Source of the DNA: Truepera sp.
GTDB lineage: Bacteria > Deinococcota > Deinococci > Deinococcales > Trueperaceae
Assembly: GCA_965218435.1 (NCBI GenBank)
Contig: CBDCKW010000009.1
Location: 2,976,001-3,040,000, forward strand
Length of the DNA: 64,000 bases
Direction of reading: 5' to 3'
Shown here: positions 1 to 64,000 of the stretch, piece by piece
How positions within the stretch are numbered: the stretch's first letter is position 1
Layout of the letters: each line of letters starts with the position of its first letter
Notes under the pieces: model-generated
Databases searched by the model: none
What the model saw: the letters and a program-made list of their open reading frames with translations, nothing else
Told to the model about the DNA's origin: nothing
Position numbers and translations under genes: made by a program

Positions 1-257
1 TCGTAAGCCTTACAGAAGTCTCTGTCAACCGCTATGCCGACTTTTACTCGCATCCGTGCGTATGTGTAATTTGCAACTGCTACAGACCTAGGACCTGACC
101 GAAAAGCCCACAGGTTATCTTGCGGTGGCTACAGAAAAGCCCGGAACCGGAACGTAAAGCGTCCTCGAGCACCTTGACCTTATACTGTCTGGGAAAGTGT
201 AAACCACATTTCTACGGTTCTTAACCAAGCATCCCTGCCTTAATGCTATAGTTAGGC

Positions 258-920
258 ATGGTTAAACCTGTACTCTTATCTGATTCGGTAGGCAACTACC
301 TCAAAGCGATCTGGGTGCTTGCCGAAGATAAGAGTATCAGCACGAAAGAACTCGCCGAGCACTTGGGCGTCACTGCACCGTCGGTTACAGGCATGTTGGG
401 CAAGTTAGCAAAACTCGGCCTCGTGACTTATGAGCGGTATTACGGCGCGAAACTGACGCAAGCGGGGCGGTTAGAGGCGCTCCGTTTGTTGCGTCGTCAC
501 CGGCTAATCGAGACGTTTTTGCTTGACTACCTCGACTACAGCTGGGACGAAGTACACGATGAAGCCGAACTGATGGAACACACCATGACGGAACGCTTTA
601 CCGAGCGGCTCGCGGAAAAGTTGGCGCAGCCTGCCTTTGACCCGCACGGTGACCCGATTCCGGCGGCGGACGGGACGCTGCCGGAGCGTGTCGGCGAACC
701 CTTAAGCAGCCTTAATGTTGGCGAAAAACTACGTGTCAACCGTATTTTAAGCCAGGAGAGCGAAGTGCTGAGCTACCTTTTTAACCTCGGCGTCAAACCC
801 GGCGTGGTGCTTACTGTTAAAGGCGTCGAACCCTTTGGCAAGTTGTTTCATATCGCCGGTCAGAACGGCGAGTTCGCGCTCTCGGCGGACCTAGCCGGGC
901 AGATCGAAGGCGAAAAGTGA
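258..920 (+). CDS. mntR: DtxR/MntR-family metal-dependent transcriptional repressor with C-terminal FeoA/SH3-like domain
   Basis: N-terminal wHTH (YLKAIW...LGVTAPSVTGML), RRHRLIETFL, EAELMEH and DPHGDPIP metal-site motifs; TATAGT at 247-252 lies 5 nt before the ATG (leaderless). Confidence 0.9.
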   Translation: MVKPVLLSDSVGNYLKAIWVLAEDKSISTKELAEHLGVTAPSVTGMLGKLAKLGLVTYERYYGAKLTQAGRLEALRLLRRHRLIETFLLDYLDYSWDEVHDEAELMEHTMTERFTERLAEKLAQPAFDPHGDPIPAADGTLPERVGEPLSSLNVGEKLRVNRILSQESEVLSYLFNLGVKPGVVLTVKGVEPFGKLFHIAGQNGEFALSADLAGQIEGEK

Positions 921-1121
921 CGGGCAAAATACTTCGGCTGTGAACTTACAAGTTCCTCAACCGTTTGCCAGATAAGGTTGCGTACAATATTTTTAGGTAA
1001 AGCAAATATCGAACAACAGCCGAGTCAACCTCCGTGACTCGGCTTACAACAGCTACGTTCTCGGTTACACGAACACCTCTGTTTCCGGCTCAAGCCGACC
1101 CGCCCAACTCGGCAAAAGTCT

Positions 1122-2351
1122 CTAAAACGCCCACTCGCCCGCCCGCATCACCGGCTCTTCAGAATCGTCATCACAAACTCCGGCAATCTCCATCTCCGCG
1201 GAGCCGATCATAAAGTCTACGTGCGTCAGCGAATCGTTGAGGCCGACGGCTTCGGCTTCATCGTCGCTCATGGTCGTGCCGCCTTCAGCACAGAAACGGT
1301 AAGCGCGGCCCAGCGCGAGGTGTGAGGCAGCGTTTTCATCGAACAAGGTGTTGTAAAAGAGCAGGCCGCTCTGCGAGATGGGGCTCGAGTGCGGTACCAG
1401 CGCCACTTCACCCAGGCGGGTCGCGCCTTCGTCGGTGGCTAGCAGGCGCTCCAAAGCGTCCTGACCCTGCGCTGCCTTCACGTCGGTGACGCGCCCTTCT
1501 TTGAAGGTCAGAGAAAAATCGTCAATCAGTTGCCCACTGTATGAAAGCGGTTTGCTGCTGTGAACCGTACCCTCGACGCGGGCGCGGTGCGGCGCGGTAA
1601 AGACCTCTTCAGTCGGCAAGTTGGCGACAAAGGTCGTCCCGGCGTCATTTTCCGACCCGCCCCCGCGCCAGATATGACCGTCAGCCAGACCCAGCAAGAG
1701 GTCGGTACCGGGGGCGCGGTAGTGCAGCGCCCGGTAGCGGCGTTCGTTGAGGTGCGTGCGGCGGGACTCGAGTTCACCCAGATGCGCCTGCCAGTTGGCC
1801 ACCGCGTCGTCGCTGTCCGCTCGAACCGCCTTGAAGATTGCGTCCCAAAGTTTGCCGACGCGCTCATCCGCAGGCGCGTCGGGAAATACCTTCTCCGCCC
1901 ACGCCGGGGTTGCGACCGCGACCACACACCAGTTGATCTCGTCGTTCATGACCTTATTCATAAACGGTTTGAGCGCCGTTTGCGCCGCCTTTTGCACCGC
2001 GGCAATGGCGTCACCGGGTTGCCCTTTGAGCAGGTCGGGATCGCCGCCGGTCACCGACAACCTCGCGCCGTTGTCATTAACCATCTCGAGCATCCCCTCT
2101 GCGAGCCACGCCGGGTAAAAGTCGAACGAATCTTCCGGCGCGTACTGAAACCGTGCGAGCGTCAAAGCGTCGTCGTTATAAAACGGATGGACATAGCGCA
2201 CACCGCGTTTGTAGGCGGCTTCGCTTACCTTAGCGAGCAGCGGCGACGCTTCGATGGGCGCAGCGATCATGAGCTGTTGACCGGCTTGTACGTTGAGACC
2301 GACTTCAGCAATCAGGGCGGCGTAACTGATAAGTTTATCGTCAAAATTCAT
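1122..2351 (-). CDS. M29-family aminopeptidase (AmpS/AmpT-like)
   Basis: NLPTEEVFTAP, GEVALV, LFDENAASHLALG and SLTHVDFMIGS motifs. Confidence 0.92.
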   Translation of the reverse strand: MNFDDKLISYAALIAEVGLNVQAGQQLMIAAPIEASPLLAKVSEAAYKRGVRYVHPFYNDDALTLARFQYAPEDSFDFYPAWLAEGMLEMVNDNGARLSVTGGDPDLLKGQPGDAIAAVQKAAQTALKPFMNKVMNDEINWCVVAVATPAWAEKVFPDAPADERVGKLWDAIFKAVRADSDDAVANWQAHLGELESRRTHLNERRYRALHYRAPGTDLLLGLADGHIWRGGGSENDAGTTFVANLPTEEVFTAPHRARVEGTVHSSKPLSYSGQLIDDFSLTFKEGRVTDVKAAQGQDALERLLATDEGATRLGEVALVPHSSPISQSGLLFYNTLFDENAASHLALGRAYRFCAEGGTTMSDDEAEAVGLNDSLTHVDFMIGSAEMEIAGVCDDDSEEPVMRAGEWAF

Positions 2352-2688
2352 AGGTTTAATCGTCAGTAGGTTTAGCTTAACGCCTGTGGCTTGGTAAACT
2401 TCGTGTGCTAATGCAGAGAATACAGCCTAGAGAAGCACCTATTCTCCCTGCTGTTTTCTGTATTCCGTCTCTACTCGAGCAGTAAAAATGTTGAGTGACC
2501 CTTGACTAAACGCTTAAACGTGAGAAACTTGATTACGTCAGCCGCCGCGCCGCGTTATAACAGGGAGTCTTGACCCGCTGCCTCTGCACCTCAGCCGCTC
2601 TCAGCACGCCGCCGCACAGCTGCGCACGGCTTAAACTGAGCTGTGGGTGGACACTGGCTGGCACGTCAGCGCCGCCCCAGGGAGGGAT

Positions 2689-3363
2689 ATGATCTTTCAA
2701 TTTTTGGGCCAATCGGGGTTTTTTGTCCAGACAGGTGAGCACGAACTGCTCATCGACCCTTTTCTAACGGGGAACGACAAAGCAGTTAGTAAACCCGAAG
2801 ACTTCTCACCGTCTTATATCATCTTGACGCACGCCCACGGCGACCACTACGGCGATACTGAAGCTATTGCCAAGCGGAGCGGCGCGACGGTCGTAAGCAG
2901 CTTTGAAGTCGTCACCTACTTGGGTAAAAAAGATATCAAAGGGCAACCGCTGAATATCGGCGGTCAGGTGACGCTGCCTTTTGGTTCGGTCAAGCAGACC
3001 CCGGCGTGGCACTCGAACTCACTGCCTGACGGCACCTATGCGGGGATGCCTGCGGGTATCATCTTGGGGTTAGAAGGTAAACGTATCTATCACGCCGGGG
3101 ATACCGGGTTATTTAGCGATATGAAGCTGATAGGGCAGGGCGGCCTAGACCTCGCCATCTTACCGATTGGCGACCTTTTAACGATGGGGCCGAGTGACGC
3201 TTTAGAGGCTGTGAAACTCTTAAACCCCAAACAGGTCATCCCTGTTCACTACGACACGTTCCCAATGATTGAGCAAGACGCGAACGCGTTTAAGTCGGTA
3301 GTCGAAAGCGAAACCGACGCCGAAGTCGTCGTCTTAAAACCAGGCGAAAGGCTGACCCTTTAA
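2689..3363 (+). CDS. Metallo-beta-lactamase-fold hydrolase (UPF0173-like)
   Basis: LIDPFLTGN, THAHGDH, YHAGDT and PVHY motifs; ATG at 2689 follows a GGAGG SD. Confidence 0.88.
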   Translation: MIFQFLGQSGFFVQTGEHELLIDPFLTGNDKAVSKPEDFSPSYIILTHAHGDHYGDTEAIAKRSGATVVSSFEVVTYLGKKDIKGQPLNIGGQVTLPFGSVKQTPAWHSNSLPDGTYAGMPAGIILGLEGKRIYHAGDTGLFSDMKLIGQGGLDLAILPIGDLLTMGPSDALEAVKLLNPKQVIPVHYDTFPMIEQDANAFKSVVESETDAEVVVLKPGERLTL

Positions 3364-3366
3364 CCC

Positions 3367-4311
3367 TTGCGCCAGCCTGCTTTTGTCCCCGACGGGTATA
3401 CCCTCTTGCACCTGCTCGGTTCAGGTAACACCGCGCACGTGTACGAGGCGCGGCACGCCGAACACGGCACCGTGGCGCTGAAACTGCCTAAAAGCGAGCT
3501 GCAACACGACCCGGTGCTCCGGCGGATGTTTGAAAACGAGGTGCAGCTGACGACGCCGCTCAAACATCCGCGGGTGATCAACGCTTACGGCGGTTACCCG
3601 ACCGGCGAATGGGCGTTTTTGGCGTTGGAGTTTTGTGAAGGCACTCTAGACGCCGAATTGGGATTGCGTTTGCCGCTGGCTTTGGCGTACCGGCTGGTGC
3701 TCGAGGTCGCCCAAGGGCTCTCACACAGCCATCAGCGGCAAATCCTGCACCGTGACGTCAAACCCGCCAACGTCTTCCTGCAGGGCGGTCACGCCAAACT
3801 CGGCGACTTTGGCACGGGCGCGTATATCAGTGACGTGTTCGGCGCACCCCCGAATACCGAAAAGGTCGGGACGGCCTTTTACATGGCCCCGGAAATTTTT
3901 CAGGGCAAAAGCGCCACGGTGCGGAGCGACGTGTACAGCTTAGGCATCTTGGCCTATGAGGTCATTTCAGGTGTGCGCCCCTTTACCGGCGAACACGAAG
4001 GCGAACTGATGCTCGCGCATTCGTCGGGCGTCCCGGTCTCTTTACGGCAACTGCGGGCCGAGGTAAGCCCTGAAGTCAACCGGGTTATCGTCAGTGCGAT
4101 GTCTCGTACCCCGGAAAAACGCTTTGACAGCGCCGAAGCGTTTGTCACCGCGTTCGCTGAGGTGACCGGTCAACCGGCCAGCGACGCCATCACCGAACTA
4201 CAACTCGGGCGGGCGGGCCGTACCAACGGCACCGCACTTAAAAGCAAACGTGAACCGCAACCAAGCGAAAAGTCCGGGCGGTTCGGTTGGTTTGGGCGGA
4301 GGCGCAGTTGA
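3367..4311 (+). CDS. Hanks-type Ser/Thr protein kinase, cytoplasmic
   Basis: LGSGNTAHVY Gly loop, VALK, HRDVKPAN, DFG, YMAPE and DVYSLG; no TM or PASTA region. Confidence 0.92.
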   Translation: MRQPAFVPDGYTLLHLLGSGNTAHVYEARHAEHGTVALKLPKSELQHDPVLRRMFENEVQLTTPLKHPRVINAYGGYPTGEWAFLALEFCEGTLDAELGLRLPLALAYRLVLEVAQGLSHSHQRQILHRDVKPANVFLQGGHAKLGDFGTGAYISDVFGAPPNTEKVGTAFYMAPEIFQGKSATVRSDVYSLGILAYEVISGVRPFTGEHEGELMLAHSSGVPVSLRQLRAEVSPEVNRVIVSAMSRTPEKRFDSAEAFVTAFAEVTGQPASDAITELQLGRAGRTNGTALKSKREPQPSEKSGRFGWFGRRRS

Positions 4312-4368
4312 GCGGCGTCCGGGGGTAGGGCCTCGAACAAAGCGCGTAGCGCCCTATTGACCGGTCCA

Positions 4369-4553
4369 TACGAGTCTAGAACGGGCTGTTGAGCCCTCTG
4401 GAAAGTAGCGGTCATGTCCCCCTAGATTACTGTCTAGGACGATCTTTAAGGCGATCTACCGGGTCATGCTCAGGCAGACAAACATCTTCTTGTCTAGCTT
4501 ATACAACAAAGCACGTTCCAGATAAGGTTACTAAAAAATTGCCGTGTACTTAG
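4369..4553. mobile_element. Left-truncated copy of the IS4/IS10-like MITE at 60648-60857
   Basis: Ungapped alignment to 60673-60857 with about 28 mismatches in about 185 nt (hand count); keeps the right TIR TTGCCGTGTACTTAG; left TIR absent. Confidence 0.8.
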
Positions 4554-4847
4554 CTCTTTGCCACCAACTATCCCGACAAAAAAGCCTGTCTCAAAGCTCA
4601 TCGTTACCGCAGGTAGACCGAAGAAATGTTCGGCGACTTTAGGGGTCACGGCGCTGACTTAGCGCAAACCCGCCTTCGTTCTACCGACAAGCTTCACCGG
4701 CTCACGCTGGCGGTTTGTTTGCTCTATCTCTGGTTCGTTGCCTTTGGCTCCCGGGTTATCAAGTGGGGGCTGCGCAAGCTGGTCGACTGTAGGTCCAGAA
4801 GAGACCTCAGTAGCTTTCGCATCGGCTTCGACTTCTTATCAAAATAA
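4554..4847 (+). pseudogene. IS4-family DDE transposase 3' remnant
   Basis: Reads LFATNYP..ACLKAHRYRR*TEEMFGDFRGHGADL...RRDLSSFRIG: a degenerate Y-x2-R-x3-E-x6-K region with an internal TAG; 5' part missing. Confidence 0.8.
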
Positions 4848-4917
4848 CAGTCGGAGTTGCTTAGAGAGATACCAATACAAGACACTCCTGTCCGTCAGTT
4901 CGGGCTAAAATAACCCT

Positions 4918-5661
4918 GTGGGACAGCGTTACGCCGTGCAAGAAGGGATTATCTTGCGCCGCTCGGAGTTGCCGAGTGGCGATATTATCGTGACACTCTT
5001 AAGCGAAGAGAGCAAGTGGCGCGCGGTAGCCCGTAAAGGCAAGCTCGTCGGCGGCAACTTGGGCAAACTGAGCCTCTTTCATGACGTGACGGTGCAGCAC
5101 TACACCCGCCCCGGTGACCAAAGCGACTTGGCGCTTATTACGCAAGTCCAGCTTAACGGCGCACTGCCTCGGCTCAGCGACCCCGATATCTACCCGTACG
5201 CACATGTCCTCGCTGAACTGACCAACAAACTTGCAGTAGACGTGCATCTCGACGGCGGCTTTTACCGCTATTTTACCGGAGCCTTGCGCGGCGTGTCGCA
5301 ACAAACCGATCCCGAACGCGTCGCGCTGGTCATGAGCTGGCGGCTGTTGGCGCAAGGGGGACTTTCGCCGAGAGTGACGCGCTGCGCTCGTTGCGGCGAG
5401 CGCGACTTAGAGGGAGCAACCACCTTTGACGTGGCCGCCGGTGGTCTCAGCTGCGCGGCCTGTAACAGCGGCTTTCGGCTTTTGTCCTCAGTCCAAGGCG
5501 AGTTGACGGCGCTGCACCGTCTCAGCGTAGCCGAAGCCCTTACCTTACCCTTTTCTGAGCGCCGCGCACACTGGACGCTGTTGTCACGGTACTTGGGCTA
5601 CCACGTCGGTGAGGTGCAGAGTTTGCTCTATCTGCCCAGAACAGCGGAAGCCGCCGTCTAA
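4918..5661 (+). CDS. recO: DNA repair protein RecO
   Basis: N-terminal OB fold (EGIILRR..D.IVTLL..AVARKG) and CxxC...CxxC zinc finger as in Deinococcus/Thermus RecO. Confidence 0.9.
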   Translation: MGQRYAVQEGIILRRSELPSGDIIVTLLSEESKWRAVARKGKLVGGNLGKLSLFHDVTVQHYTRPGDQSDLALITQVQLNGALPRLSDPDIYPYAHVLAELTNKLAVDVHLDGGFYRYFTGALRGVSQQTDPERVALVMSWRLLAQGGLSPRVTRCARCGERDLEGATTFDVAAGGLSCAACNSGFRLLSSVQGELTALHRLSVAEALTLPFSERRAHWTLLSRYLGYHVGEVQSLLYLPRTAEAAV

Positions 5662-5714
5662 GCGAGCTACTGTTTGGACAAGATGTATAAACTGAGCTTT
5701 ATGGACGAAACCGT

Positions 5715-6326
5715 GTGAATGGGTTTTGGGTTTTAAGTCTTCTGGCAGGATATTTACTCGGTAGTCTGCCGAGCGCGGCGCTGGTGGCGCGGCTTAAACG
5801 GCAAAATATCTTCGAGGTGGGCTCGAGCAGTATGGGCGCGATGAATACCGCCCGAAACCTCGGGTGGGCGCTCGGGGCACTTGTTTTGCTCCTCGACTTA
5901 GGAAAAGGCGCGTTGGCAAGTTTTATCGGCCTTTGGCTCGGTGCGCTCGGCGGTGACCCGCTCGTGACGCCGCTCGCCGCCGGAGTCGGCGCGATTGTCG
6001 GACACCTCTGGTCGGTCTGGGTCGGGTTTCGTGGAGGTAAAGGACTCGCCACGACGCTTGGTGTCGCGCTGCCGGTCTATCCACTCGGCGGACTTTACGG
6101 TCTTGCCGCGCTACTTTTATTGATCGTCATCTTCCGCCGCGTGACCTTGGCAACATTTTTAACGGCGCTCGTCTACCCGGTCGGAGTTTACCTCTCGCTG
6201 GCTGCGTCTGCGCCGCCGACACGGGTCATGGCGACGACGTTAGCGGCGTGTCTGATCGCGTTCCTCGTCGCGCTTAAACATGTGTTGCCCAGCCGCCCAG
6301 TCACGGGGCCGCTCCGCCAGCCCTAA
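5715..6326 (+). CDS. plsY: Glycerol-3-phosphate acyltransferase PlsY
   Basis: [26 protein letters not shown] and FRGGKGLAT motifs. Confidence 0.9.
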
Positions 6327-7415
6327 ACGCCACGCCACCGCCTGCGCGACGCGCACCCCGGCTAAACCGTCCCCGTACGGGTTCGGACCGCCTTTCATCG
6401 CAGCTCTCGCAGCCGGGTCAGCCAGCAGCGGGCGTAAAACAGCCGCGACACGTTCAGGCGTATTGCCGGCCAACTTGAGCACCCCCGCCGCCACCCCTTC
6501 GGGCCGCTCGGTGACGTTTCTTAAGACGACGACCGGCACACTGAGCGCCGCGCCTTCTTCTTGTAAGCCGCCCGAATCGGTGACGATCAGTTCAGAGGCG
6601 CTCATCAGGGCGATCATCTGGGCGTACTCGAGCGGCTCAGTCAACCTCACATTGGGTACGCGGGCCAGCGGTTCCCAAACGGCCTCTCGGACTGCCGGAT
6701 TGAGGTGAACCGGATAGACGAAGGTGTAGGTGGGAAACTCGGCGGCCAGCTCTGCGAACAGCTCGGCAAGCGGGCGGAGAAAGGGCAAGTTCTCGCGGCG
6801 GTGCATAGTCAGAGTGACAATAGGGCCACGCGGCGAACCGGACCAGTGAGCGTTTTTTGCCACCAACTGCACGGCGTCTACCGCCGTATTACCGGTCACA
6901 ACCACCGTCTCCGCACGTTTACCTTCGCGGAGCAAGTTGGCTTTAGCAAGAGGCGTAGGGGGTAGCTCGAGGTCGGTCAGGACGTCCGTCAAGCGGCGGT
7001 TGGCCTCTTCGGGAAAAGGTTCTTTGAGGTTGTGTGACCGGAGGCCCGCTTCGACGTGCGCAACTGGAATCCCTTCAAAATAGGCAGCCAAAGCCACCGC
7101 AAAAGTTGACAAGGTGTCGCCGTGAACCAACACATAGTCAGCCTGCAGGGTTTTGAGGGCCGCCGCTGCCGCCGGCACAGTGCGAGCGAGCAGGTCGGGG
7201 AGCGTCTGCCGCACCTGCATCACGCCCAGGTCGAAGTCGGGGACAAGCTTAAAGAGCTCTAAAACACTGTCGAGCTGTTCGCGGTGTTGGCCGGTAACGA
7301 GTAACAGGGGCTCGAGGCCCGCTTGCTTACGCAGCGCATAGATGACCGGGGCCATTTTGGTCGCTTCGGGGCGGGTGCCGAAGGCGGCACAGACCCTTGC
7401 AGGTACTCTACTCAC
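6240..7415 (-). CDS. wecB: UDP-N-acetylglucosamine 2-epimerase (non-hydrolysing)
   Basis: [33 protein letters not shown] and NPYGDG motifs. Confidence 0.95.
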
Positions 7416-7418
7416 GCG

Positions 7419-8507: not shown

Positions 8508-8583
8508 CCGTCTAGTTTACTCGGTTAGTAGTGTGTGTAAAGTAGGGACGCACGTCATTATCACGATTATCGTTGTGACTAGC

Positions 8584-21176: not shown

Positions 21177-22157
21177 ATGGCTGAACCTGTCCGCTGGGGC
21201 ATTTTAGGAACGGGTAACATCGCTCGGCAGTTTGCCGGAGGGCTCGCTGAGTTGCCGGACGCTCAGCTCGTTGGGATCGGCTCGAGAACTCTCGAGACGG
21301 CCCAAGCTTTCGCCACGACGTTTGGCGCTGCTCACGCTCACGGCAGCTACCACGCGTTAGCCGCAGACCTGGATATAGACGTGGTTTACATTGCGACGCC
21401 GCATACCCTGCACGCTGAAAATAGTCTGCTCTGTTTAGAAGCGGGCAAAGCGGTGCTTTGTGAAAAGCCCTTTACCCTTAACGCGGCTCAGGCACAGACT
21501 GTGGTAGACAGCGCCAGGGATAAAGCATTATTCCTGATGGAGGCGATGTGGACGCGCTTTTTTCCACTGTTTAAGACGCTTCGTGACCTTCGAAAGGGAC
21601 AGATCGGAGAACCCAGACTTTTACAGGCTGACTTTGGGATTGTAAGTCCGGTAGTCCAGAACCGCCTCTTTGACCCGGCTTTGGGAGGTGGGGCGCTGCT
21701 CGATGTGGGCGTCTATCCGGTCTCGCTCGCGTCGTACTTGTTAGGTACGCCGACGGCGGTCTCGAGCCGCGCCCACTTAGGCGCAACGGGCGTTGATGAA
21801 CAAAATGCCGTTATCCTAGAGCATCAGGGCGGCGCACTCGCGGTTCTCAGCTCGGCGATTCGCGCAGAAACGCCGCAAGAGGCGCTCATCGTGGGAACAG
21901 AAGGGAGCATCCGGGTGTGCGCTCCGTGGTGGCAACCCACGAGGATAATTTTAGCGAATAAAGACGGCGAAGAGACGTTTAGCTCGCCTCTCCCACACAA
22001 CGGGTACGCGTACGAGGCCGCCGAGGTCATGCGTTGTCTGAGAGAGGGGTTGCTCGAGAGTCCTCTCATGCCGTTAGCTGAAACGCTCAGTATCATGCAC
22101 ACACTCGATACCTGCCGCACTCAGTGGGGGCTGCGTTATCCAGGGGAATCCGAGTAA
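21177..22157 (+). CDS. Gfo/Idh/MocA-family oxidoreductase
   Basis: WGILGTGNIA, LCEKP, EAMWTRF and GGGALLDVGVY motifs. Confidence 0.92.
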   Translation: MAEPVRWGILGTGNIARQFAGGLAELPDAQLVGIGSRTLETAQAFATTFGAAHAHGSYHALAADLDIDVVYIATPHTLHAENSLLCLEAGKAVLCEKPFTLNAAQAQTVVDSARDKALFLMEAMWTRFFPLFKTLRDLRKGQIGEPRLLQADFGIVSPVVQNRLFDPALGGGALLDVGVYPVSLASYLLGTPTAVSSRAHLGATGVDEQNAVILEHQGGALAVLSSAIRAETPQEALIVGTEGSIRVCAPWWQPTRIILANKDGEETFSSPLPHNGYAYEAAEVMRCLREGLLESPLMPLAETLSIMHTLDTCRTQWGLRYPGESE

Positions 22158-40474: not shown

Positions 40475-40556
40475 AATGTCATCCTTTCGCCTCGAGCCTA
40501 CAAGCTACTAGGCTCGAGATGCTGAGAACTATGCTTAAAAGCCTTTAACAAGCGTT

Positions 40557-51387: not shown

Positions 51388-51413
51388 CTCCGGAAGGCTC
51401 GAGTGAGTGGGTA

Positions 51414-52409
51414 ATGCTCGGCTTTATCCTTAAAAGGATTGGCTACGCTGTGCCAACTCTCGTTTTAATCAGCTTTTTTTCGTTTCTGATTATCGAACTC
51501 CCACCTGGAGACTATATGACCACGCTGCAAAACACGCTGGTCGCGCAGTCGGGCATGTCTCCAGGGGAGGCGCGCGCGCTGACTAACCGGATGAGGGAAG
51601 AGTACGGCCTCGATAAACCCTTTTTGATACGCTACGGTCAGTGGATCAGTGCTATCGTCACGCGCGGCGACTTCGGCTTTTCTTTCATCTTTCGCCGTCC
51701 GGTGAGCGAGGTGATCTGGCAACGCTTGGGGCTGACCCTGCTCGTCGCCCTTTGCGCCCATGTTCTGTCAGTTGTCAGCGGCGTCCTCATCGGTATCTTT
51801 TCAGCCACCCACCGCAACACCTTTTTTGACCACGCGGCTACCGTACTCGCTTTTTTAGGCTTCTCGGTACCCAACTTTTTCCTAGCACTCGTTATTATGT
51901 ACGTGCTCGCTTTTCACTTTGGTCAGCACGTCGGCGGCTTTTTTAGCCCTGACTACGTGATCGCCCCCTGGAGCTGGGCGCGTCTTGTCGATTTTCTCAA
52001 ACATTTTTGGGTACCTGTTTTGGTCGTCGGACTCGCGGGTACGGCGCGCAACATGCGGGTTATGCGCGGCAACTTACTTGATGTGCTTAACCAGAACTAC
52101 GTGCGCACGGCGCGCGCGAAAGGTCTGTCCAGCAACCGTGTTATCTTTAAGCACGCGGTTCGCAACGCCATTCAGCCCATCGTGATGTACCTTGGGGTGG
52201 CGCTGCCCTTTTTGCTCCAAGGTGAGATCGTAACGAGCGCCGTGCTGAACCTCCCGACGATGGGGCCGGTATTTTTACAGTCGCTGGTCACGCAGGACAT
52301 GTACCTTGCGGGCTCATTTTTGATGTTGCTGGCTGTAGTGCTGGTGATTGGCAACCTGCTGGCAGATATTGCGCTCGTTTGGGTAGATCCGAGAGTAAGT
52401 TATGATTGA
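51414..52409 (+). CDS. ABC transporter permease (OppB/DppB type)
   Basis: LPPGD, YGLDKP, GDFG.S and YVRTARAKG motifs. Confidence 0.93.
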   Translation: MLGFILKRIGYAVPTLVLISFFSFLIIELPPGDYMTTLQNTLVAQSGMSPGEARALTNRMREEYGLDKPFLIRYGQWISAIVTRGDFGFSFIFRRPVSEVIWQRLGLTLLVALCAHVLSVVSGVLIGIFSATHRNTFFDHAATVLAFLGFSVPNFFLALVIMYVLAFHFGQHVGGFFSPDYVIAPWSWARLVDFLKHFWVPVLVVGLAGTARNMRVMRGNLLDVLNQNYVRTARAKGLSSNRVIFKHAVRNAIQPIVMYLGVALPFLLQGEIVTSAVLNLPTMGPVFLQSLVTQDMYLAGSFLMLLAVVLVIGNLLADIALVWVDPRVSYD

Positions 52410-53535
52410 CGCCACGAGGATAAAACCGGTTGGGCAGACTGAGCCGAAATTCCAGACCAAAAGCACGTCAACGCTCGCTTTAACCTGGCGACGTTTCCGG
52501 CGAAACACGTTGGCCCAGATAGGCGGGACGTTCGTTGTTCTTCTTTTCTTCATCACCCTTTTTGCTCCCTTCTTTACACCGTATAATCCGACCCAAACAC
52601 AACTAGGTACAGTTTATGTTCCTCCCCAACGCGTTCACTTTTTCGACACCGAAGGGCGGTTTCATCTTCAATCCTTTACTTACGCGCTTGTTCCCGACAT
52701 AGACCCCAATACCTGGGCACGTATTTACCGTGAAGATACCAGCAAGATGTACAGGCTAAACTTTTTTGCCCCTGGTTGGGATTACAAGCTGCTTAACCTT
52801 GTCCCGACAAACCTCCATCTCGTCAGCGTCGAGGAAGGGGGTAGTCTGTTTCTCCTTGGTACCGACAAGATGGGGCGCGACCTCCTCAGCCTGATCATCT
52901 TCGGTGCGCGTATTTCGGTCGGGATCGCAGTTTTTGGCGCACTGGTGAGCGCCTTTTTAGGGTCGGTGATCGGCGCGGCGTCGGGGTATTACGGGGGTAT
53001 CTTCGACAACGTTACCCAGCGAGTCAGTGAACTTCTGCTGAGTTTTCCAACGTTGCCGCTCTTTATGGCGGTGAGCGTAGCGATTCCGGTCGAGTGGCCA
53101 CCGCTCGGTGTGTTTTTCGGCATTATGATGATTTTTGCCCTGTTAGGTTGGCCGACGCTGGCGAGGGAGGTGCGTGGCAAAGTACTGTCTTACCGTGAAG
53201 AAGAGTTTGTCATGGCTGCTCGCGCGGCTGGGGCGACAGGACCTTACATCATCTTCCGCCACATCTTGCCGAACGTGATCAGTCACATTATCGTGATCCT
53301 TACGATCAGTGTACCCGAGCTAATCCTGGCGGAGGGGGCGCTATCGTTTTTGGGCCTTGGCATTCAACCACCGCTAGTGAGCTGGGGCGTCTTGTTACGC
53401 GACGCAACGACGTTAGAGACCCTCGGCCAGAACCCTTGGATCATGCTTCCGGGTGTCGCCATCTTGTTAACCGTCTTAGCTTTTAACTTTCTTGGAGACG
53501 GTTTGCGTGACGCCATCGACGCGACGACCCAATAA
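52402..53535 (+). CDS. ABC transporter permease (OppC/DppC type)
   Basis: LGTDKMGRD, EFVMAARAAGA, SFLGLG and GDGLRDA motifs. Confidence 0.93.
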   Translation: MIDATRIKPVGQTEPKFQTKSTSTLALTWRRFRRNTLAQIGGTFVVLLFFITLFAPFFTPYNPTQTQLGTVYVPPQRVHFFDTEGRFHLQSFTYALVPDIDPNTWARIYREDTSKMYRLNFFAPGWDYKLLNLVPTNLHLVSVEEGGSLFLLGTDKMGRDLLSLIIFGARISVGIAVFGALVSAFLGSVIGAASGYYGGIFDNVTQRVSELLLSFPTLPLFMAVSVAIPVEWPPLGVFFGIMMIFALLGWPTLAREVRGKVLSYREEEFVMAARAAGATGPYIIFRHILPNVISHIIVILTISVPELILAEGALSFLGLGIQPPLVSWGVLLRDATTLETLGQNPWIMLPGVAILLTVLAFNFLGDGLRDAIDATTQ

Positions 53536-53581
53536 CAGACAACCCGGCAAAAAGGCAGGGTTGCAGTAAACTAGGAGTCCT

Positions 53582-54997
53582 ATGACTAAAATCACCTTTA
53601 TCGGCGCAGGCAGCACGGTATTTGCCAAAAACCTACTCGGCGACATTCTAAGCTTTCCCGAACTTTCAACTGCAGAGATTGCACTCTTCGATATTGACGC
53701 CGAACGTCTCAAGACGTCGGAAATCGTGGCGCACAAGGTTGCCGACGCACTCGGCGCTAAACCGACTATCACCGCCACGACCGACCGCAATGCTGCGCTA
53801 GACGGCGCAGACTACGCGCTCAATATGATTCAAGTCGGCGGCTACAAACCGAGCACGGTGATTGATTTTGAGATTCCGAAAAAGTACGGGTTACAACAGA
53901 CCATCGGCGATACTTTAGGCATCGGCGGCATCATGCGGGCGCTTAGGACTGTTCCGGTGCTCTTAGAGATGGCCCACGACATGGAGCGGCTTTGCCCCGA
54001 CGTGCTGCATCTGAATTACGTCAACCCGATGGCGATGAACTGTTGGGCGTTAGCCCGAGCCACGCGGATTAAAACCGTTGGACTTTGCCACAGCGTCCAG
54101 GGCACTGCGGGTGAGTTGGCCAAAGACATCGGCGTGCCGGTGGAGGAAATCAACTACCGCGTTGCCGGCATCAACCACGTGGCGTTTTATCTTGAGTTTG
54201 AGCGGGGCGGACAAGATTTATACCCGGAGATTCAGCGTGTGGTAGACGAAGGCCGTGTCCCCGACACGAACCGGGTGCGTTACGAGATGTTTAGACGGTT
54301 GGGCTATTTTGTCACCGAATCTTCAGAGCACTTTTCTGAATATACGCCGTGGTTTATTAAACAGAATCGGCCCGAACTCATTGAAAAGTTTAATATCCCG
54401 ATCGACGAATATTTGCGCCGCTGCGAGTTTCAGCTGCAGAAGTGGGAACAGCTCAGAAATAGGCTCGAGGACCCCACCACCACCTTTAAGGTGCAAGACG
54501 TTCACAGCGAACACACGGACGACTCCCCAACGGACGGCAGCGTCCGTGACGAAGACCGGATGATGGAACAGATGCTCACCATCAAACGCTCGCCCGAGTA
54601 CGGCTCCTTAATTATCCATTCGGTTGAAACAGGACAGCCCAGGGTCGTTTACGGCAACGTCATGAACACCGGCCTGATTGACAACCTACCCGAATGCTGC
54701 GCCGAAGTCCCGTGCGTCGTTGACCAAAACGGCATGCAACCAACCCATATCGGCGCGTTGCCGCCGCAGCTTGCTGCCCTGATGCAAACCAACATCAACG
54801 TGCAGGCTCTGACGGTTGAGGCCATCTTGACCGGCAACAAAGAACATCTCTACCACGCCGCGATGTTTGACCCGCATACGAGCGCCGAGCTGGATTTAGA
54901 GCAGATTCACGACTTGGTGGACGACCTCTTAGAGGCGCACGGCGAGATGATACCTGAAGCGTTTCGCGCTTCAAAACAGCGGGAGTTGGCGCACTAA
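53582..54997 (+). CDS. melA: GH4 alpha-galactosidase (MelA-like, paralogue 2)
   Basis: KITFIGAGSTVF, QTIGDTLGIGGIMRALRT, NYVNPMAM, GLCHSVQGT and TESSEHF motifs. Confidence 0.9.
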   Translation: MTKITFIGAGSTVFAKNLLGDILSFPELSTAEIALFDIDAERLKTSEIVAHKVADALGAKPTITATTDRNAALDGADYALNMIQVGGYKPSTVIDFEIPKKYGLQQTIGDTLGIGGIMRALRTVPVLLEMAHDMERLCPDVLHLNYVNPMAMNCWALARATRIKTVGLCHSVQGTAGELAKDIGVPVEEINYRVAGINHVAFYLEFERGGQDLYPEIQRVVDEGRVPDTNRVRYEMFRRLGYFVTESSEHFSEYTPWFIKQNRPELIEKFNIPIDEYLRRCEFQLQKWEQLRNRLEDPTTTFKVQDVHSEHTDDSPTDGSVRDEDRMMEQMLTIKRSPEYGSLIIHSVETGQPRVVYGNVMNTGLIDNLPECCAEVPCVVDQNGMQPTHIGALPPQLAALMQTNINVQALTVEAILTGNKEHLYHAAMFDPHTSAELDLEQIHDLVDDLLEAHGEMIPEAFRASKQRELAH

Positions 54998-55896: not shown

Positions 55897-55948
55897 AGGC
55901 CCTCAGCATAACTGGATAAGCTCGCAAAGGTCCGAAACGGGCTCAGTG

Positions 55949-56149
55949 CAGGGCTTACGCATGTGACAAGGTTTCACCGGCCCAGTAAAGGTAACGTACG
56001 GCTTTCGGTGGCCATGCCAACCTCGGCGTAGCTTCTGCACGTTCAGCGTCGGCGACGTTGGTAGAGAGCAACCTATAAGCTGGTTGACCTTCGACACGCC
56101 GGTGACGGAGACACAAAAACTTCGCCGCAATCCATAGGCGTAAGCCCTG
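55949..56149. mobile_element. 201-bp MITE with CAGGG ends (ISAs1-like)
   Basis: Perfect 12-bp TIR CAGGGCTTACGC/GCGTAAGCCCTG; flanking direct repeat CTCAGTG at 55942-55948 and 56150-56156. Confidence 0.85.
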
Positions 56150-56167
56150 CTCAGTGAGTTAGCCCGG

Positions 56168-57532: not shown

Positions 57533-57536
57533 AGGG

Positions 57537-58298
57537 TCAGGTTCTCCTTAGTAACCAGATAAAACCGGCGAACGGAAACGTCTCTTCGCCGTCAAAAAAG
57601 GGCTCGAGCTCTTCAGTAAACTTTACTTTGAGCGTTTGGGCTGAGTAACGTCCGCTCGAGCTTGCCGCAACCGCGTTACTCTGCGACATAAGATAAGCTA
57701 CAAAGTCAGCCAAATTAAATGACCAGGTATTTTCGTAAGGTTCTCTGACCACAAACTCAAAGCCAGCTTTTCGGGCATCTTCGTCTGTAAAAGGTGCGCG
57801 GTCTCTGGGCGGTGACAGATGAGCTTCGTAATAACGTTTTAACCACGCCACAAAATTGGCATTTAGATGCTGCTGACCTCTGAAAAAGTTTTCGTATAGG
57901 GCGAGCCAACCGCCCGGACGCAGCACGCGCCGCGCCTCTTGCAAAAACGCGCCACGGTCAAACCAGTGAAACGCGGAGCTGACGGTGATGAGGTCGGCGG
58001 TAGCATCCGCTAGAGGAAGTGATTCTGCTGACGCCTGATAGTAGGTGATACGCGCGTCTTTCGGGGCTATAGAGAGCATTGCTTTAGACGCGTCTATTCC
58101 AATCACACGTTTAGCGACAGCCAGCAGCGCCTGCGTTGACAAGCCCGTACCGCACGCCACGTCTACGGCTAGCTCGAGGGGAGCGCCTAAAAAAAGTTTT
58201 TCTCTAACTCTTTCAATCACCAGCGGATGAAAGTGAGGACGGCCCTGAGCGTAAGCTTCGGCAGTCTCCGAGGTAACAAATGGATTTACGGGGTTCAT
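57537..58298 (-). CDS. Class I SAM-dependent methyltransferase
   Basis: VDVACGTG, AESLPL, AFHWF and RVLRPGG motifs. Confidence 0.9.
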   Translation of the reverse strand: MNPVNPFVTSETAEAYAQGRPHFHPLVIERVREKLFLGAPLELAVDVACGTGLSTQALLAVAKRVIGIDASKAMLSIAPKDARITYYQASAESLPLADATADLITVSSAFHWFDRGAFLQEARRVLRPGGWLALYENFFRGQQHLNANFVAWLKRYYEAHLSPPRDRAPFTDEDARKAGFEFVVREPYENTWSFNLADFVAYLMSQSNAVAASSSGRYSAQTLKVKFTEELEPFFDGEETFPFAGFIWLLRRT

Positions 58299-59271
58299 CA
58301 GTATTCTAAAACCCGCTGCACCGCTTTCAAAATGCGGTTCACTCCCGGCAAGTAAAGCCGGTCTTGTGCATACGGATACGGCGTGTCAAAGCCAGTTACG
58401 CGCAGGGGCGGTGCGAGCAGCATATCCAGCACTTCTTCAGAAATCGTCGCCGCCACCTCGCTGACAAACCCGCCGGTTTTGGGCGCTTCGGAGACCAACA
58501 CGACGCGGCCGAGTTGGGCCACGGCCTCTAACACCGTCCCCTTGTCCCACGGCATCAAGGAGCGCAGGTCAATCACCTGGGCCGAAATGCCCTGCTCAGC
58601 GAGCGCGTCAGCGGCCTTGAGCGTTTCGGCAACGCTCGCGCCGTAAGAGACGAGCAGCACGTCGTCCCCCTCACGTCGCACTCTCGCTTGACCGAGTGGA
58701 ACGAGGTGTTCGCCGTCCGGCACCTCTTCTTTCATGGTGCGGTACAAGCGTTTAGGCTCCATAAAAATCACCGGATCGTCGTCGCGGATGGCGGTGCTCA
58801 GGAGTCCTTTGGCGTCAGCGGGAGACGACGGGTAGACGACCTTGAGGCCGGGGGTGTGAACGAAGTGCGTTTCAGGGTTTTGCGAGTGATGATGTCCGCC
58901 TTTGACGCCGCCACCCGCAGGCATCCGCACGACCATCGGGGCGAAAAACTGCCCGCCGGAGCGGTAGCGAAGTTTGGCGGCTTGCGAGACGAGTTGGTCA
59001 AAACCGGGGTACACGTAATCTGAGAACTGGATTTCAGCAACGGGCCGGAGGCCGTGCGCGGCCATTCCCACCGCCGCGCCGATAATCGCCGCTTCTGAAA
59101 GCGGCGTGTCAATCACCCGGTCAGGACCATAACGTTCAAACAGTCCTTCGGTCGCCAGAAAGACGCCGCCGCGTTTGCCGACATCTTCACCCATCAAGAC
59201 GACGCGCTCGTCCCTTTCCATCTCACCTAAAAGGGTATGCGCGACCGTTTGGACAAAGTTAAGCTGCGCCA

Positions 59272-59272
<1 letters not shown>
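58298..59272 (-). CDS. 2-oxoisovalerate dehydrogenase E1 beta
   Basis: [24 protein letters not shown] and GGHHHSQ motifs. Confidence 0.92.
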
Positions 59273-60498
<1,226 letters not shown>

Positions 60499-60647
60499 TT
60501 ATGCGCCCATAAAGTTGCCGCCAACCGTCCGCTCGAGCAGCTGTCACTCACATCAAGTATACGCTAGCACCCCTGAGCGCGTAAAAAACCCATGCCCCCT
60601 ACCAATTCGGTACACTTTTCGGCGTCAGCTAAAGTTATGAGTGTTTG

Positions 60648-60857
60648 CTTAGTACAAGACAAAAAACAATTTTACGAGTCTGGAACGGGCTATTGAGCCC
60701 TCTGAAAAGTAGCGTTTATGTTCCCCTAGATTGCTGTCTAAGACAATGTTCAAAGGGGTTTACCCGGTCGTGCTCATGCAGACAAACATCTTCTTGTCTA
60801 GCTTATGCAAAAAAGCACGTTCTGGACAAGGTTGCTAAAAAGTTGTCGTGTGCTCAG
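60648..60857. mobile_element. 210-bp MITE, IS4/IS10-like ends
   Basis: Imperfect 15-bp TIR CTTAGTACAAGACAA/TTGTCGTGTGCTCAG (12/15); 9-bp TSD GAGTGTTTG/GAGCGTTTG; second copy at 4369-4553. Confidence 0.8.
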
Positions 60858-60871
60858 GAGCGTTTGTTGAA

Positions 60872-61032
60872 CAGGGCTGACGCATCTTCAAACTGAACCG
60901 AAGGTTTCAGGGGAATTTGCTTTGTTTTCAAAAATCCCTGCTGCGTAAATATCAAAGCGAGGTGCTTTATTCGCCTTCTTCAGCTTGAGAATCGTTTTAT
61001 GGACTTTCAGAACTAGGTCACGCTCAGCCCTG
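60872..61032. mobile_element. 161-bp degenerate MITE with CAGGG ends (ISAs1-like)
   Basis: TIR CAGGGCTGA/TCAGCCCTG; 10-bp TSD GTTTGTTGAA/GTTTGTCGGA (8/10). Confidence 0.7.
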
Positions 61033-61240
61033 GTTTGTCGGAGGTAGCCCCGGCCCCGCCAGCAAAGTGACAGTTTTGCTCCACACGAGGTTTGTGATGC
61101 GCTCATAGCTTAGAGAACGTGACGGGCCTAAACAGCTCAGGGGACTTTCTCACGCTTTGTTCCCCTTGTTCCCCAGCACTTGCGGGTAATAGCTGCTACC
61201 CGGCACGGGTGCGCTATCATAGGCAGACGAGGAGGCTCAG

Positions 61241-62233
61241 ATGAGAACGAGAAACCCACAGCGCCTGTTGGCCTACGCGCTGATCATTATCGGCGTAATT
61301 ATGCTGGTGTCGCGCATCGGCAGTGCGGACTGGCTCTGGTTGGCACTTATCAGCGCCTTGTTTTTGTTCGGTTACGTGTCGCGGAAAAACTACAACTTTT
61401 TGGTTGCGGGCGGCGTGCTAATGGGTATCGCCGTCGGCACGCTGATCGGCACTGACAGCGGGATGCTCTTAAGCCTCGCCGCCGGATTTTTTGCAATTGA
61501 CCGGATAGAGCCTAAACCCAACCGCTGGGCACTCTACAGCGCAGGGATTTCTGCGGTTCTGGGCGCACTCGTCGCGTTCGGGTCGTTTGGCCTCTTAAGT
61601 TCAACTGCGTTTGCTCTCGCGCTGGTCGCGGTTGGGACCTACTTGCTCTACCGTGAAGGGAATAAACCGGACACGCCCCCGACTAGTACGAGCAGCTATA
61701 CGCCCAGTCCCCCTAGTCAGTCGTCCGCAACCTCACCGATACCGGAACCCTCGAGCGAACCTGCCACGAATACGTCAGCAACGAGTACGCCGGGCAGTGA
61801 AACCGCGCCGCCCCCACCAGCGGCCGAAACCGTGCAACCGTCCCATACCCCCCCTGCCCATACACCCGCTAATGTACCCGGTGGTGCGGCAACGCCCGCT
61901 ACGCCATTAGAAAACCAGCCACTAGAAAACCAGCCGCGACAAGAATCGCCCCAACCACCACCGGAACAGCCCACGCTCTCGGGCGAAGCTGAAACGCGGT
62001 TACGGCGGCTCGAGGCGTGGCGGCGTGAAATCGCCGCGGCTGACGGGGTACCGCCGTATATCGTCTTTTCCAACGACACTCTAGCCAAAATTGCGGCGGC
62101 AAACCCCCGAACGCTGGACGAGTTAGACACCATTAAGGGCGTCGGACCAGTTAAGCTGTCGCGTTACGGCGAAACCGTTTTAGGCGTCTTAAAGGATGAC
62201 CCCGGCGAGGACACTGAAGTTGTGGCAAGCTAG
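61241..62233 (+). CDS. Membrane protein with a Pro/Ser/Thr linker and C-terminal HRDC domain
   Basis: Hydrophobic N-terminal ~135 aa; L.AWRREIA...GVPPYIVFSNDTL..IA..P.TLDEL..IKGVG..K..RYG HRDC pattern. Confidence 0.85.
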   Translation: MRTRNPQRLLAYALIIIGVIMLVSRIGSADWLWLALISALFLFGYVSRKNYNFLVAGGVLMGIAVGTLIGTDSGMLLSLAAGFFAIDRIEPKPNRWALYSAGISAVLGALVAFGSFGLLSSTAFALALVAVGTYLLYREGNKPDTPPTSTSSYTPSPPSQSSATSPIPEPSSEPATNTSATSTPGSETAPPPPAAETVQPSHTPPAHTPANVPGGAATPATPLENQPLENQPRQESPQPPPEQPTLSGEAETRLRRLEAWRREIAAADGVPPYIVFSNDTLAKIAAANPRTLDELDTIKGVGPVKLSRYGETVLGVLKDDPGEDTEVVAS

Positions 62234-62325
62234 CACGGACGCACAAAAAGCCTGTAGACCTTACCATGACCTACGCAGCGAGCAGCTAGACTAGAGAGAT
62301 AGACACTATCTAAACGGAGGAACTT

Positions 62326-63468
62326 ATGGACACAACGATTCAGCGCGGGCTTGACGGAGTAGTCATTGACACGACTGAAATCTGCAGCATTGACGGAATG
62401 AAAGGCGAGCTGATCTACCGTGGCTACGACGTCCGCGAGTTGGCCGATAAAGCCTCGTTTGAAGAGGTTATTTACCTTTTGTGGAACGGCAAATTACCTA
62501 AAAAAGACGAGCTTGCCGAGTTTCAAGCGTCTTTGCAACCTCACTTCGCCGTACCGGACGAAGTGATTGACGTACTGCGGCACTTTCCCACGAATGAGAG
62601 CCCGATGCACGCGCTGCGTACGGCGGTCTCGATGCTCGCGGCCTCGGACAAAGAGAGCGACGGCGTTGACCTGGATAACGTGCGCCGTATCGGAATCCGG
62701 CTGACCGCCCAGATCATCACCTTGACCGCCGCTTTAGAGCGTATCCGCGACGGACAAGACCCCGTTGCGCCACACCCCGAGCTGTCACTCGCCGCGAACT
62801 TTCTCTATATGACCAATGATGAGATGCCCTCTGAAGCTGCCGTGCGCGTAATGGACGTGGCGCTCGTGTTGCACGCTGAACACGGCTCGAACGCGAGCAC
62901 TTTTGTGGCGCGGGCAACCGCCTCGACCCTGACGGACGTATACAGCGCCATCACCGCCGCTATCGGCTCACTTAAGGGGCCACTGCACGGCGGCGCGAAC
63001 ACTGCCGTGATGCAGATGTTAGAAGAGATCGGCAGCGTCGAAGCGGTCGAAGATTTTGTGATGAACAAACTAGGTCAACCCAAGGCCCGCATCCCCGGTT
63101 TCGGTCACCGCGTCTACCGGGTGCTCGACCCACGCGCGGCGATTTTAGAAGGCGTCGCCGAAAAGCTCGCCGAAGAGTCCGGCGATTCGAAGTGGTTTGA
63201 GATGTCGCAAGAGATGGAGCGCGTGATGGAGCGCGAGATGGACAAACAGGGCAAGCAGGTGCGGCCCAACGTAGACTTCTTTTCGGCGTCGGTCTACCGG
63301 ATGCTCGGCTTTCCCGGCGAGATGTACACGCCGATTTTCGCTGTCGCCCGGACACCGGGGTGGATGGCGCATCTCTTAGAGCAGTACGCCGACAACCGTT
63401 TGATGCGGCCCAAACTCGCGTATGAGGGTGAAAAAGGCAAGACGTTTACGCCTATAGAGGAGCGTTAA
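62326..63468 (+). CDS. gltA: Citrate synthase (2-methylcitrate synthase not excluded)
   Basis: GELIYRGY, HAEHGSNAST, GPLHGGAN, GFGHRVY and PNVDF motifs. Confidence 0.9.
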   Translation: MDTTIQRGLDGVVIDTTEICSIDGMKGELIYRGYDVRELADKASFEEVIYLLWNGKLPKKDELAEFQASLQPHFAVPDEVIDVLRHFPTNESPMHALRTAVSMLAASDKESDGVDLDNVRRIGIRLTAQIITLTAALERIRDGQDPVAPHPELSLAANFLYMTNDEMPSEAAVRVMDVALVLHAEHGSNASTFVARATASTLTDVYSAITAAIGSLKGPLHGGANTAVMQMLEEIGSVEAVEDFVMNKLGQPKARIPGFGHRVYRVLDPRAAILEGVAEKLAEESGDSKWFEMSQEMERVMEREMDKQGKQVRPNVDFFSASVYRMLGFPGEMYTPIFAVARTPGWMAHLLEQYADNRLMRPKLAYEGEKGKTFTPIEER

Positions 63469-63502
63469 AGCTCCAAAGCGTAACCCCCATAAACCGACCA
63501 GC

Positions 63503-63539
63503 CTACGCCCGACGCAGATTTTACCGTCGGGCGTAGTTT
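63503..63539 (+). terminator. Hairpin/terminator after citrate synthase
   Basis: CTACGCCCGACG/CGTCGGGCGTAG 12-bp stem followed by TTT. Confidence 0.65.
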
Positions 63540-63713
63540 CGTAGGGACCGGGCTCGAGTCTCCCCGGCAGTAGCGTAAAACGGCTAAGATAGTGAGCGGT
63601 CTTTGACCGCTAGCTTTTACCTCAATTTTTAAGGTATAGTAGCTGGCGACAGTCGTATAGCCGTACCGTAAAACGTACCAAAAACAGCTCGGTGGGCCGG
63701 GAAAGAGGTAAAA

Positions 63714-64000
63714 GTGGCTGTTACACTTCCGCCAAGAGAAGCCAAACGCGAATTTGCCGTCGAGGGCGCGTACCGCTACAACAGCGGGAGCACGCTCCGC
63801 TGGATTTTGTCGCATCTGGGGCGTTACCCGCTCCTGCTCTTTAGTTTCTCCGCCGCCGCGATCTTAACCAACGTGCTCTTTTCCGCCATACCCCGCCTGA
63901 CCGGAACGGCGTTCGACGAGGTGCTTCGGCCCGAACCGAGTGTGCGGCGACTCTTGACGATTGCGCTGATTATCTTGGGCATCGTCTTGGTGCGCGGCGT
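63714..64000 (+). CDS. ABC exporter (fused TM-ATPase type), 5' part running off the window
   Basis: GTG after GAGG; open to the window end; RWILSHL..YP..TM1..IPRLTG.AFD..TM2 pattern typical of MsbA/MdlA-like N-termini. Confidence 0.65.
   Translation, partial: MAVTLPPREAKREFAVEGAYRYNSGSTLRWILSHLGRYPLLLFSFSAAAILTNVLFSAIPRLTGTAFDEVLRPEPSVRRLLTIALIILGIVLVRG

Follow-up and report, generated by a model that had tools for sequence, protein, structure and literature searches.

HIP1 (GCGATCGC), a highly iterated palindrome known from cyanobacteria, has gone unexplained for three decades. Parts of PMC4390886, PMC5861425 and PMC13756078 describe HIP1 and the alternate HIPs as short palindromes that occur genome-wide, in all reading frames and in spacers, and that are conserved between species, features shared by CTCGAG, the word studied here, which adds a second phylum. 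The window, a 64,000-nucleotide stretch of a Truepera genome (G000:C9:2976001-3040000; genome G000, 4.81 Mb), carries 127 dispersed copies of this palindrome (positions 1..64000, no strand assigned), a sample of the 9,883 sites in the genome. The original prediction, made from the window, saw in them a HIP1-like signal maintained by a methylation-, repair- or chromosome-organisation-linked system.

CTCGAG is in excess, conserved between species and nearly absent from mobile genes, and it co-occurs with addAB, which encodes a helicase-nuclease. It may be the Chi-type signal of AddAB in this order, a reading with a probability of roughly 40%. AddB would read the word, which is predicted to halt degradation of a broken DNA end and to start recombination; a palindrome is readable from either end, so no strand bias would be needed. 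Broken chromosomes and incoming self-like DNA bearing CTCGAG would be rescued more often, near-misses that gain it would spread, and losses would be removed. With a common restriction site present in thousands of copies, keeping any methylase that covers it would also be favoured. This would account for unrelated methylases having been captured and swapped repeatedly from XhoI/PaeR7I-like restriction systems; these interchangeable enzymes would protect CTCGAG rather than cause its excess. A fuller version of the proposal is slightly more doubtful. It would make CTCGAG the first Chi that is a palindrome and free of orientation, have a compact AddAB read it in most Deinococcota, place it about once per 150 bases in one family, have repeatedly captured methylases shield it, and offer it as a possible model for HIP1.

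Excess and conservation of CTCGAG

CTCGAG is the most frequent hexamer in the window, and it also ranks first against a second-order Markov model (5.4x), being the sole palindrome there above 1.8x. About 125 copies, one per 500 bp, had been predicted against some 20 expected, a roughly 6-fold excess; the 127 sites compare with 19.8 expected from base composition (6.4x). The GC content, put earlier at about 59%, is 57.7%. The extended form GCTCGAGC accounts for 30 of the 127 sites. By location, 73 are in-frame Leu-Glu, the remaining two frames hold 8 and 27, and 19 lie between genes, so that several coding frames are used as claimed, and all six positions named earlier as intergenic lie outside the gene calls.

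The word stands far above composition and Markov expectation throughout the genome. Its 9,883 copies (2.06/kb, about one per 490 bases) make it the top hexamer, at 6.7x under order 0 and 5.2x under order 2, the Markov comparison that the original prediction had proposed. A model from which the word is masked puts the excess at 7.5x across the genome and at 9.6x in spacers shorter than 600 bp. The maximum-order Markov ratio of 1.24 was set aside, since CTCGAG inflates its own 5-mers and the excess is thereby understated. Most other 6-bp palindromes are depleted. The genome strongly avoids GGCGCC, GGGCCC, TTTAAA, AGGCCT, GCATGC, GCCGGC and RGATCY (0.02-0.14x), and about a dozen further methylase genes are present.

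Coding sites were compared with within-gene synonymous shuffles, using gene calls from a model built for this analysis (4,659 genes). The 8,504 coding sites divide by frame into 6,639 (in-frame Leu-Glu), 523 and 1,342, where shuffling predicts 2,104, 83 and 260, giving excesses of 3.2x, 6.3x and 5.2x. Intergenic DNA holds 1,378 sites against 234 expected (5.9x), so the excess is found in every frame and in non-coding DNA. One-off variants of the word are unenriched in spacers (0.75-1.13x, word-masked model), and the spacer excess therefore points to the exact hexamer as the target, at the DNA level. A dicodon-preserving shuffle, suggested earlier, is useless for in-frame sites because CTC-GAG is itself a dicodon, and the synonymous shuffle took its place. 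The genome-wide, HIP1-like signal thus survives codon-preserving nulls and holds between genes, where its absence had been named in advance as fatal and where it reaches 5.9-9.6x. The excess is a DNA-level force.

The palindrome is also retained between species, as determined for coding sequence from 246 orthologues in G005 and 269 in G004 (about 400 kb sampled per genome; fourfold-site identity 0.52-0.53). Where Leu-Glu is conserved, CTCGAG is kept at 265 of 324 (82%) and 260 of 314 (83%) sites, compared with 58% and 62% for the control CTCGAC at conserved Leu-Asp. The site Jaccard index is 0.42 and 0.41 versus 0.08 for pooled palindromes with four G or C bases, a comparison in which a frequent word gains some chance overlap; coding sites are thus conserved above control palindromes, a comparison between species having been among the checks named in the original prediction. 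Off-frame sites with conserved amino acids are retained at 42/48 and 51/69 in frame 2 and at only 4/17 and 3/11 in frame 1. Where a conserved Leu-Glu lacks the word, TTR-GAR, at least two steps away, is the usual alternative, and one-step synonymous neighbours are scarce (12/59 and 7/54). A read-based polymorphism comparison was uninformative, with 40 differences listed from mixed samples.

Distribution and the AddAB helicase-nuclease

The excess is a phylum-scale feature. Across 201 Deinococcales genomes (f-labels denote families and g-labels genera; densities use rounded genome sizes), CTCGAG is densest in f5 (19 genomes, 4.3-6.8/kb), followed by g45 (four genomes of one genus, 2.5-3.4/kb) and g26 (17 genomes, 1.4-3.1/kb). 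Densities are mixed in f1 and f3. The 28 genomes of g23 have 0.6-1.6/kb with CTCGAG/CTGGAG ratios of 0.4-1.5, and the excess is missing from the 53 genomes of f2 (0.01-0.27/kb). Second-order Markov ratios for the relatives, from samples of 17-100 kb, are 10-16 in f5, 14 in G012, 4.9 in g45, 4.1 in G030, 2.9 in G026 and G154, 1.5-2.3 in G007, G016, G076, G131 and G158, and 0.5 in f2. From M.TaqI homologs and published addAB patterns, f2 appears to be Deinococcus-like and g23 Thermus-like. No report of a CTCGAG excess was found in the open-access literature; the portions of PMC6346199, PMC8112702 and bioRxiv 2026.06.24.734251 that were available treat CTCGAG only as a methylated motif, and PMC3903499, as far as its accessible text goes, concerns the honey bee.

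Other words also shift within these lineages. In f5 (L281-L288) GGCC is almost wholly lost, CCGG and many 6-bp palindromes are strongly reduced, and GAGCTC has only 0-25 copies in 16 of the 19 genomes. In the sample of the Thermus-like G154 (L298-L300), a C stands immediately 5' of 91% of CTCGAG sites, giving CCTCGAGG, possibly a shifted version of the word.

CTCGAG is over-represented in core DNA and scarce in mobile DNA. Multicopy genes of the Truepera genome, mostly of insertion sequence (IS) type, have 0.12 sites/kb and use CTCGAG at 4 of 72 Leu-Glu pairs versus 54% on contig C9. The genes with the lowest GC content at third codon positions (GC3) use it at 31% of Leu-Glu pairs (1.33/kb) and the remaining genes at 50-58%. 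The 16S gene has none. The scarcity in mobile DNA is qualified by two small 21-kb contigs, C6 and C8, which are denser (5.2 and 3.2 sites/kb). On these contigs the site positions recur 12,981 and 10,471 bp apart; the contigs may be over-assembled small plasmids.

The Truepera genome encodes both subunits of AddAB, outside the window and on the minus strand: AddA (904 aa, G000:C9:3359875-3362589) and AddB (772 aa, G000:C9:3363359-3365677), the candidate reader. A calcineurin-like phosphoesterase gene lies between them (G000:C9:3362586-3363362). Homologues of this AddB are named ATP-dependent nuclease subunit B, and four C-terminal cysteines are invariant in 58 AddB sequences. Sequence and profile searches against the PDB gave no AddB match; the fold search alone found one, the structural model (predicted local distance difference test score, pLDDT, 88.7) matching B. 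subtilis AddB chains best (PDB 3U4Q/4CEI, E 4e-27).

AddB is present in 52/53 f1, 21/23 f3, 51/52 f4 and 16/19 f5 genomes and in 0/53 of f2. Outside f2 it is found in 140 of 147 genomes, the misses including G007 and several incomplete genomes. AddA parallels this distribution; weak AddA matches in 14 of 53 f2 genomes are taken as probable other UvrD helicases. The only f1 genome lacking addAB, G007, has 0.29 sites/kb, and f5 and g45, which lack the methylases described below, are enriched and keep addAB. AddAB occurs in all enriched lineages and is absent from the two that lack the excess, f2 and G007. The available part of PMC9751324 reports addAB for the majority of Thermus and its absence from Deinococcus, and that of PMC11143384 invokes chi in Thermus and names no sequence.

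Several observations weigh against a Chi function. Independent absences of addAB number only two, f2 and G007. In both, the methylases are missing as well; G007 is reduced (2.1 Mb), and any gene lost in f2 would produce the same pattern. Among addAB carriers the density ranges from 0.3 to 6.8/kb. The f1 genomes G155, G042, G198, G018 and G020 keep addAB at ratios of 1.0-1.7, and g23 keeps addB in 27 of 28 genomes despite its ratios of 0.4-1.5, one 60-kb sample reaching 2.9x Markov-2. In f1, methylase carriers are the more enriched (median ratio 5.7, n=33, vs 2.7, n=21). The Truepera AddB shares 12% identity with the B. subtilis chains and falls short of their length by about 370 aa. Conservation shows that CTCGAG is retained, but by itself does not distinguish selection from biased repair that lowers loss. 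Finally, known Chi sites are non-palindromic and strand-skewed; CTCGAG is not polar or skewed to the leading strand, and a palindrome cannot be.

No conventional Chi candidate, a strand-skewed and strongly over-represented 5-8-mer, was found in the Truepera genome. Extensions of CTCGAG to 7-mers show no strand skew (0.485-0.512), and its one-off variants have no marked skew. The most replichore-skewed 7-mer on C9, GGGGAGA (311:109), is only 1.5x over-represented. It is a candidate signal of the KOPS/SRS type (FtsK orienting polar sequences/SpoIIIE recognition sequences), and the skew peaks in the two directions near 1.46 and 3.38 Mb.

Methylases and rival explanations

P0001 is a stand-alone N6-adenine methylase, termed type A here (560 aa, G000:C9:3672240-3673922, minus strand, outside the window). 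It belongs to the gamma class (PF22837) and lies among housekeeping genes near dnaG; its nearest named relatives are from Truepera metagenome-assembled genomes (61-67%). The original prediction had proposed a search for an orphan XhoI/PaeR7I-like methyltransferase, and P0001 is a related enzyme of that kind. Strong type A orthologues occur in 28 of 53 f1 and 13 of 52 f4 genomes. In the type A tree, rooted at the midpoint and without a clade test, other phyla separate the Trueperaceae group from the Meiothermus group. In other phyla a PD-(D/E)XK gene follows type A at 66 of 72 loci; in Deinococcota, where short flanks limit the view, it does so at 3 of 38 (intact in G005). This partner has a weak core-motif likeness to XhoI/PaeR7I (8 of 32 members, best E 0.03; hhalign probability 33%, E 5e-4). 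From these findings and the exchange with type B described below, type A very probably methylates CTCGAG. No named specificity for type A turned up in PDB, NCBIfam, plasmid, phage or protein searches. Neither endonuclease profile matched in the Truepera genome, so that an XhoI/PaeR7I-type restriction-modification system was not found there.

Type B is 64% identical to the annotated paeR7IM and has strong matches in 13 genomes. The PaeR7I site is CTCGAG. Weak type A matches (26-29% identity) and a 32% match to type B in G047 were not counted as carriers. All 17 genomes of g26 have exactly one of the two types, type A in 13 and type B in 4, and both occur together only in G001 and G181. In G181 (L390, G181:C4:627000-646000) a swap in place is seen, the type A gene being broken near codon 110 by an 8-kb insertion with IS copies, a methylase of the PaeR7I type and unidentified genes. 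Type A is intact in G074 of the same genus. In G005, which has 8,892 CTCGAG sites, an intact 239-aa frame (L030:869-1585, minus strand) belongs to an XhoI-like endonuclease family with 596 homologues, of which the named ones among 120 listed are all hypothetical proteins. The matching locus of the Truepera genome lacks this frame.

A putative cognate stand-alone methylase is present in g26, g46 and many f1 genomes and was not found in f5, g45 and most of f3. The 19 f5 and four g45 genomes have no strong match to types A, B or C. A single universal methylase was sought with types A, B and C and PF22837 in 201 genomes, PF02086 in 151, PF01555 and PF00145 in the 19 f5 genomes and PF07669 in 10 relatives; none is common to all genomes searched, and f5 methylases are variable. 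A 280-aa D12 enzyme is conserved in the 7 f5 loci fetched and not in others seen. M.TaqI, whose site TCGA covers the same adenine, has a homolog in 28 of 28 g23 genomes, which nevertheless show little excess. An f3 genome with 2.9 sites/kb has another, stand-alone homolog surrounded by housekeeping genes (L129, G030:C1:33946-35172). A methylase is not required for the excess, because f5 and g45 lack all three types searched, nor is it sufficient, because type A hosts in other phyla have no local excess (0.95x over 72 loci) and g23 is little enriched. Of the maintenance system predicted earlier, the methylase is borne out; methylation as the maintaining cause is not, since the strongest excess occurs in genomes that gave no strong match to the three types.

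The mechanism is most plausibly a palindromic Chi, ahead of a methyl-directed repair ratchet, an uptake tag and a nucleoid-protein site, the remainder falling to causes not considered. Codon or codon-pair usage (Leu CTC plus Glu GAG) could account for the predominance of in-frame Leu-Glu (6,639 of 8,504 coding sites), and in GC-rich relatives much of the count may reflect codons (G016, G131 and G076 samples, 1.7-2.0x Markov-2). With the Truepera excess greatest in spacers and the two off-frames, a codon by-product is refuted for that genome and vanishingly improbable overall. The ratchet, which is Elhai's model for HIP, supposes that a methylase marks one strand of a CTCGAG mismatch and that repair favours it, so that gains are fixed, losses are undone and the word is functionless. 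It would fit the scarcity of one-step synonymous neighbours as alternative states, the higher enrichment of f1 methylase carriers, the MutS and MutL motifs of the Truepera genome, and the rule of exactly one type per g26 genome together with the swap in G181. It is at odds with the methylase-less f5 and g45, with no f5-wide enzyme, with the unenriched type A hosts of other phyla, and with g23. Vsr was not found in 5 of 5 genomes tested, a MutH analogue not having been searched, so that the excess is not everywhere accompanied by a methylase and a Vsr nickase. Single-molecule real-time (SMRT) data agree with both sides: supplement 3 of PMC4752239, in its relevant table, lists CTCG(m6A)G for Meiothermus ruber, M. 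chliarophilus and Marinithermus hydrothermalis and no CTCGAG methylation for M. silvanus. On balance the ratchet is unlikely.

An uptake or transformation tag is less likely still. Word-bearing DNA would enter or recombine better, and molecular drive would accumulate the word, as with DNA uptake sequences and uptake signal sequences (DUS/USS) and as proposed for HIP1. Proteins are indeed reshaped, with Leu-Glu at 2.17x and Glu-Leu at 1.03x in f5 samples (Ser-Ser 1.73x) and at 1.26 and 1.07 in the Truepera genome; C6 and C8 are denser; and HIP1 raises cyanobacterial transformation according to part of PMC13756078. No receptor was identified, competence genes not having been surveyed, and the one-off variants in spacers are unenriched. 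Thermus is highly competent and yet among the weakest in excess. A nucleoid or chromosome-organising protein whose site favours even coverage is about as improbable as the tag, if not marginally more so. Density along C9 is level (about 190-250 per 100 kb) and under-dispersed, and the gap coefficient of variation (0.954 vs 1.007 +/- 0.008, 200 permutations) is slightly more even than chance; HIP1 periodicity was interpreted likewise in part of PMC5861425. The Leu-Asp control gave a weak negative trend too, and for that reason the test was redone within genes, where site repulsion is 0.76 at 6-25 bp, 0.89 at 25-50 bp and nil beyond 300 bp. It is clear only below 50 bp, with no consistent signal in seven control dicodons, and hairpin avoidance would yield the same. 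No candidate protein was found.

Local arrangements in the window are as the original prediction described them, apart from one interpretation. A tandem CTCGAG pair at 21281 and 21291 (21281..21296) lies within an oxidoreductase gene (21177-22157), and an intergenic hairpin (40491..40518) has perfect 10-bp arms with one site each, at 40491 and 40513. A 21-bp spacing peak was rejected as a repeat element, since flanks are unrelated and most pairs coding; it fits a seven-codon Leu-Glu spacing. The CTCGAG-free stretch at 51404..54463, bounded by sites at 51398 and 54464, is real, and spans genes for OppB/OppC-type permeases and the first part of an alpha-galactosidase gene. Its reading as foreign, less-ameliorated DNA is not supported, and it is an ordinary chance gap: at least as long a gap occurs 11 times among 8,389 on C9 (15% chance per 126 gaps), the GC3 of its genes is normal (0.61-0.67), and the stretch contains only three Leu-Glu dipeptides.

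Comparison with known systems

CTCGAG belongs to the HIP class by over-representation and conservation and is not HIP1 itself, because CGATCG is depleted to 0.15x in the Truepera genome and the nearest named relatives of P0001 are from Truepera. As with HIP1 in the available parts of the cyanobacterial reports, a stand-alone, predicted cognate methylase often accompanies the word and can be of unrelated types, and the densest genomes sometimes lack one (four strains in Elhai's account). Set against those descriptions, CTCGAG differs in phylum and in word (a 6-mer with a TCGA core), and its methylases act on adenine rather than cytosine. The Truepera excess is lower (5-9x against 15-300x), and the density in f5 is higher (about 6,000 per Mb against 300-2,700). 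The orphan CTCGAG methylases in the supplement of Blow et al. (2016, PMC4752239) place m6A at CTCGAG in three cultured species of the Thermaceae group; passages of that paper instead tie CTCGAG clusters to oriC in Nocardia, and the terms Thermus, Deinococc and over-representation find no match in its main text.

The swapping of methylases illustrates how a genome crowded with a single restriction site keeps it covered. The proposed role can be tested in Meiothermus and Thermus, which are cultured and genetically workable; the excess is naturally present in some lineages and absent from others, and a candidate reader can be named. If CTCGAG is a Chi, the rule of polar Chi would be overturned and the missing signal of Thermus-type AddAB named, with practical use in protecting linear DNA during transformation.

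DUS/USS resemble CTCGAG in their thousands of copies and in a reshaped proteome; they are 9-12 nt long and non-palindromic. The Chi of AddAB/RecBCD resembles it as an over-represented short word, scarce in mobile DNA and co-occurring with an AddAB-fold helicase-nuclease, and differs in that CTCGAG is palindromic and unskewed (0.485-0.512) and its AddB short and divergent. A palindromic Chi, if confirmed, would provide a model for what HIP1 does in cyanobacteria.

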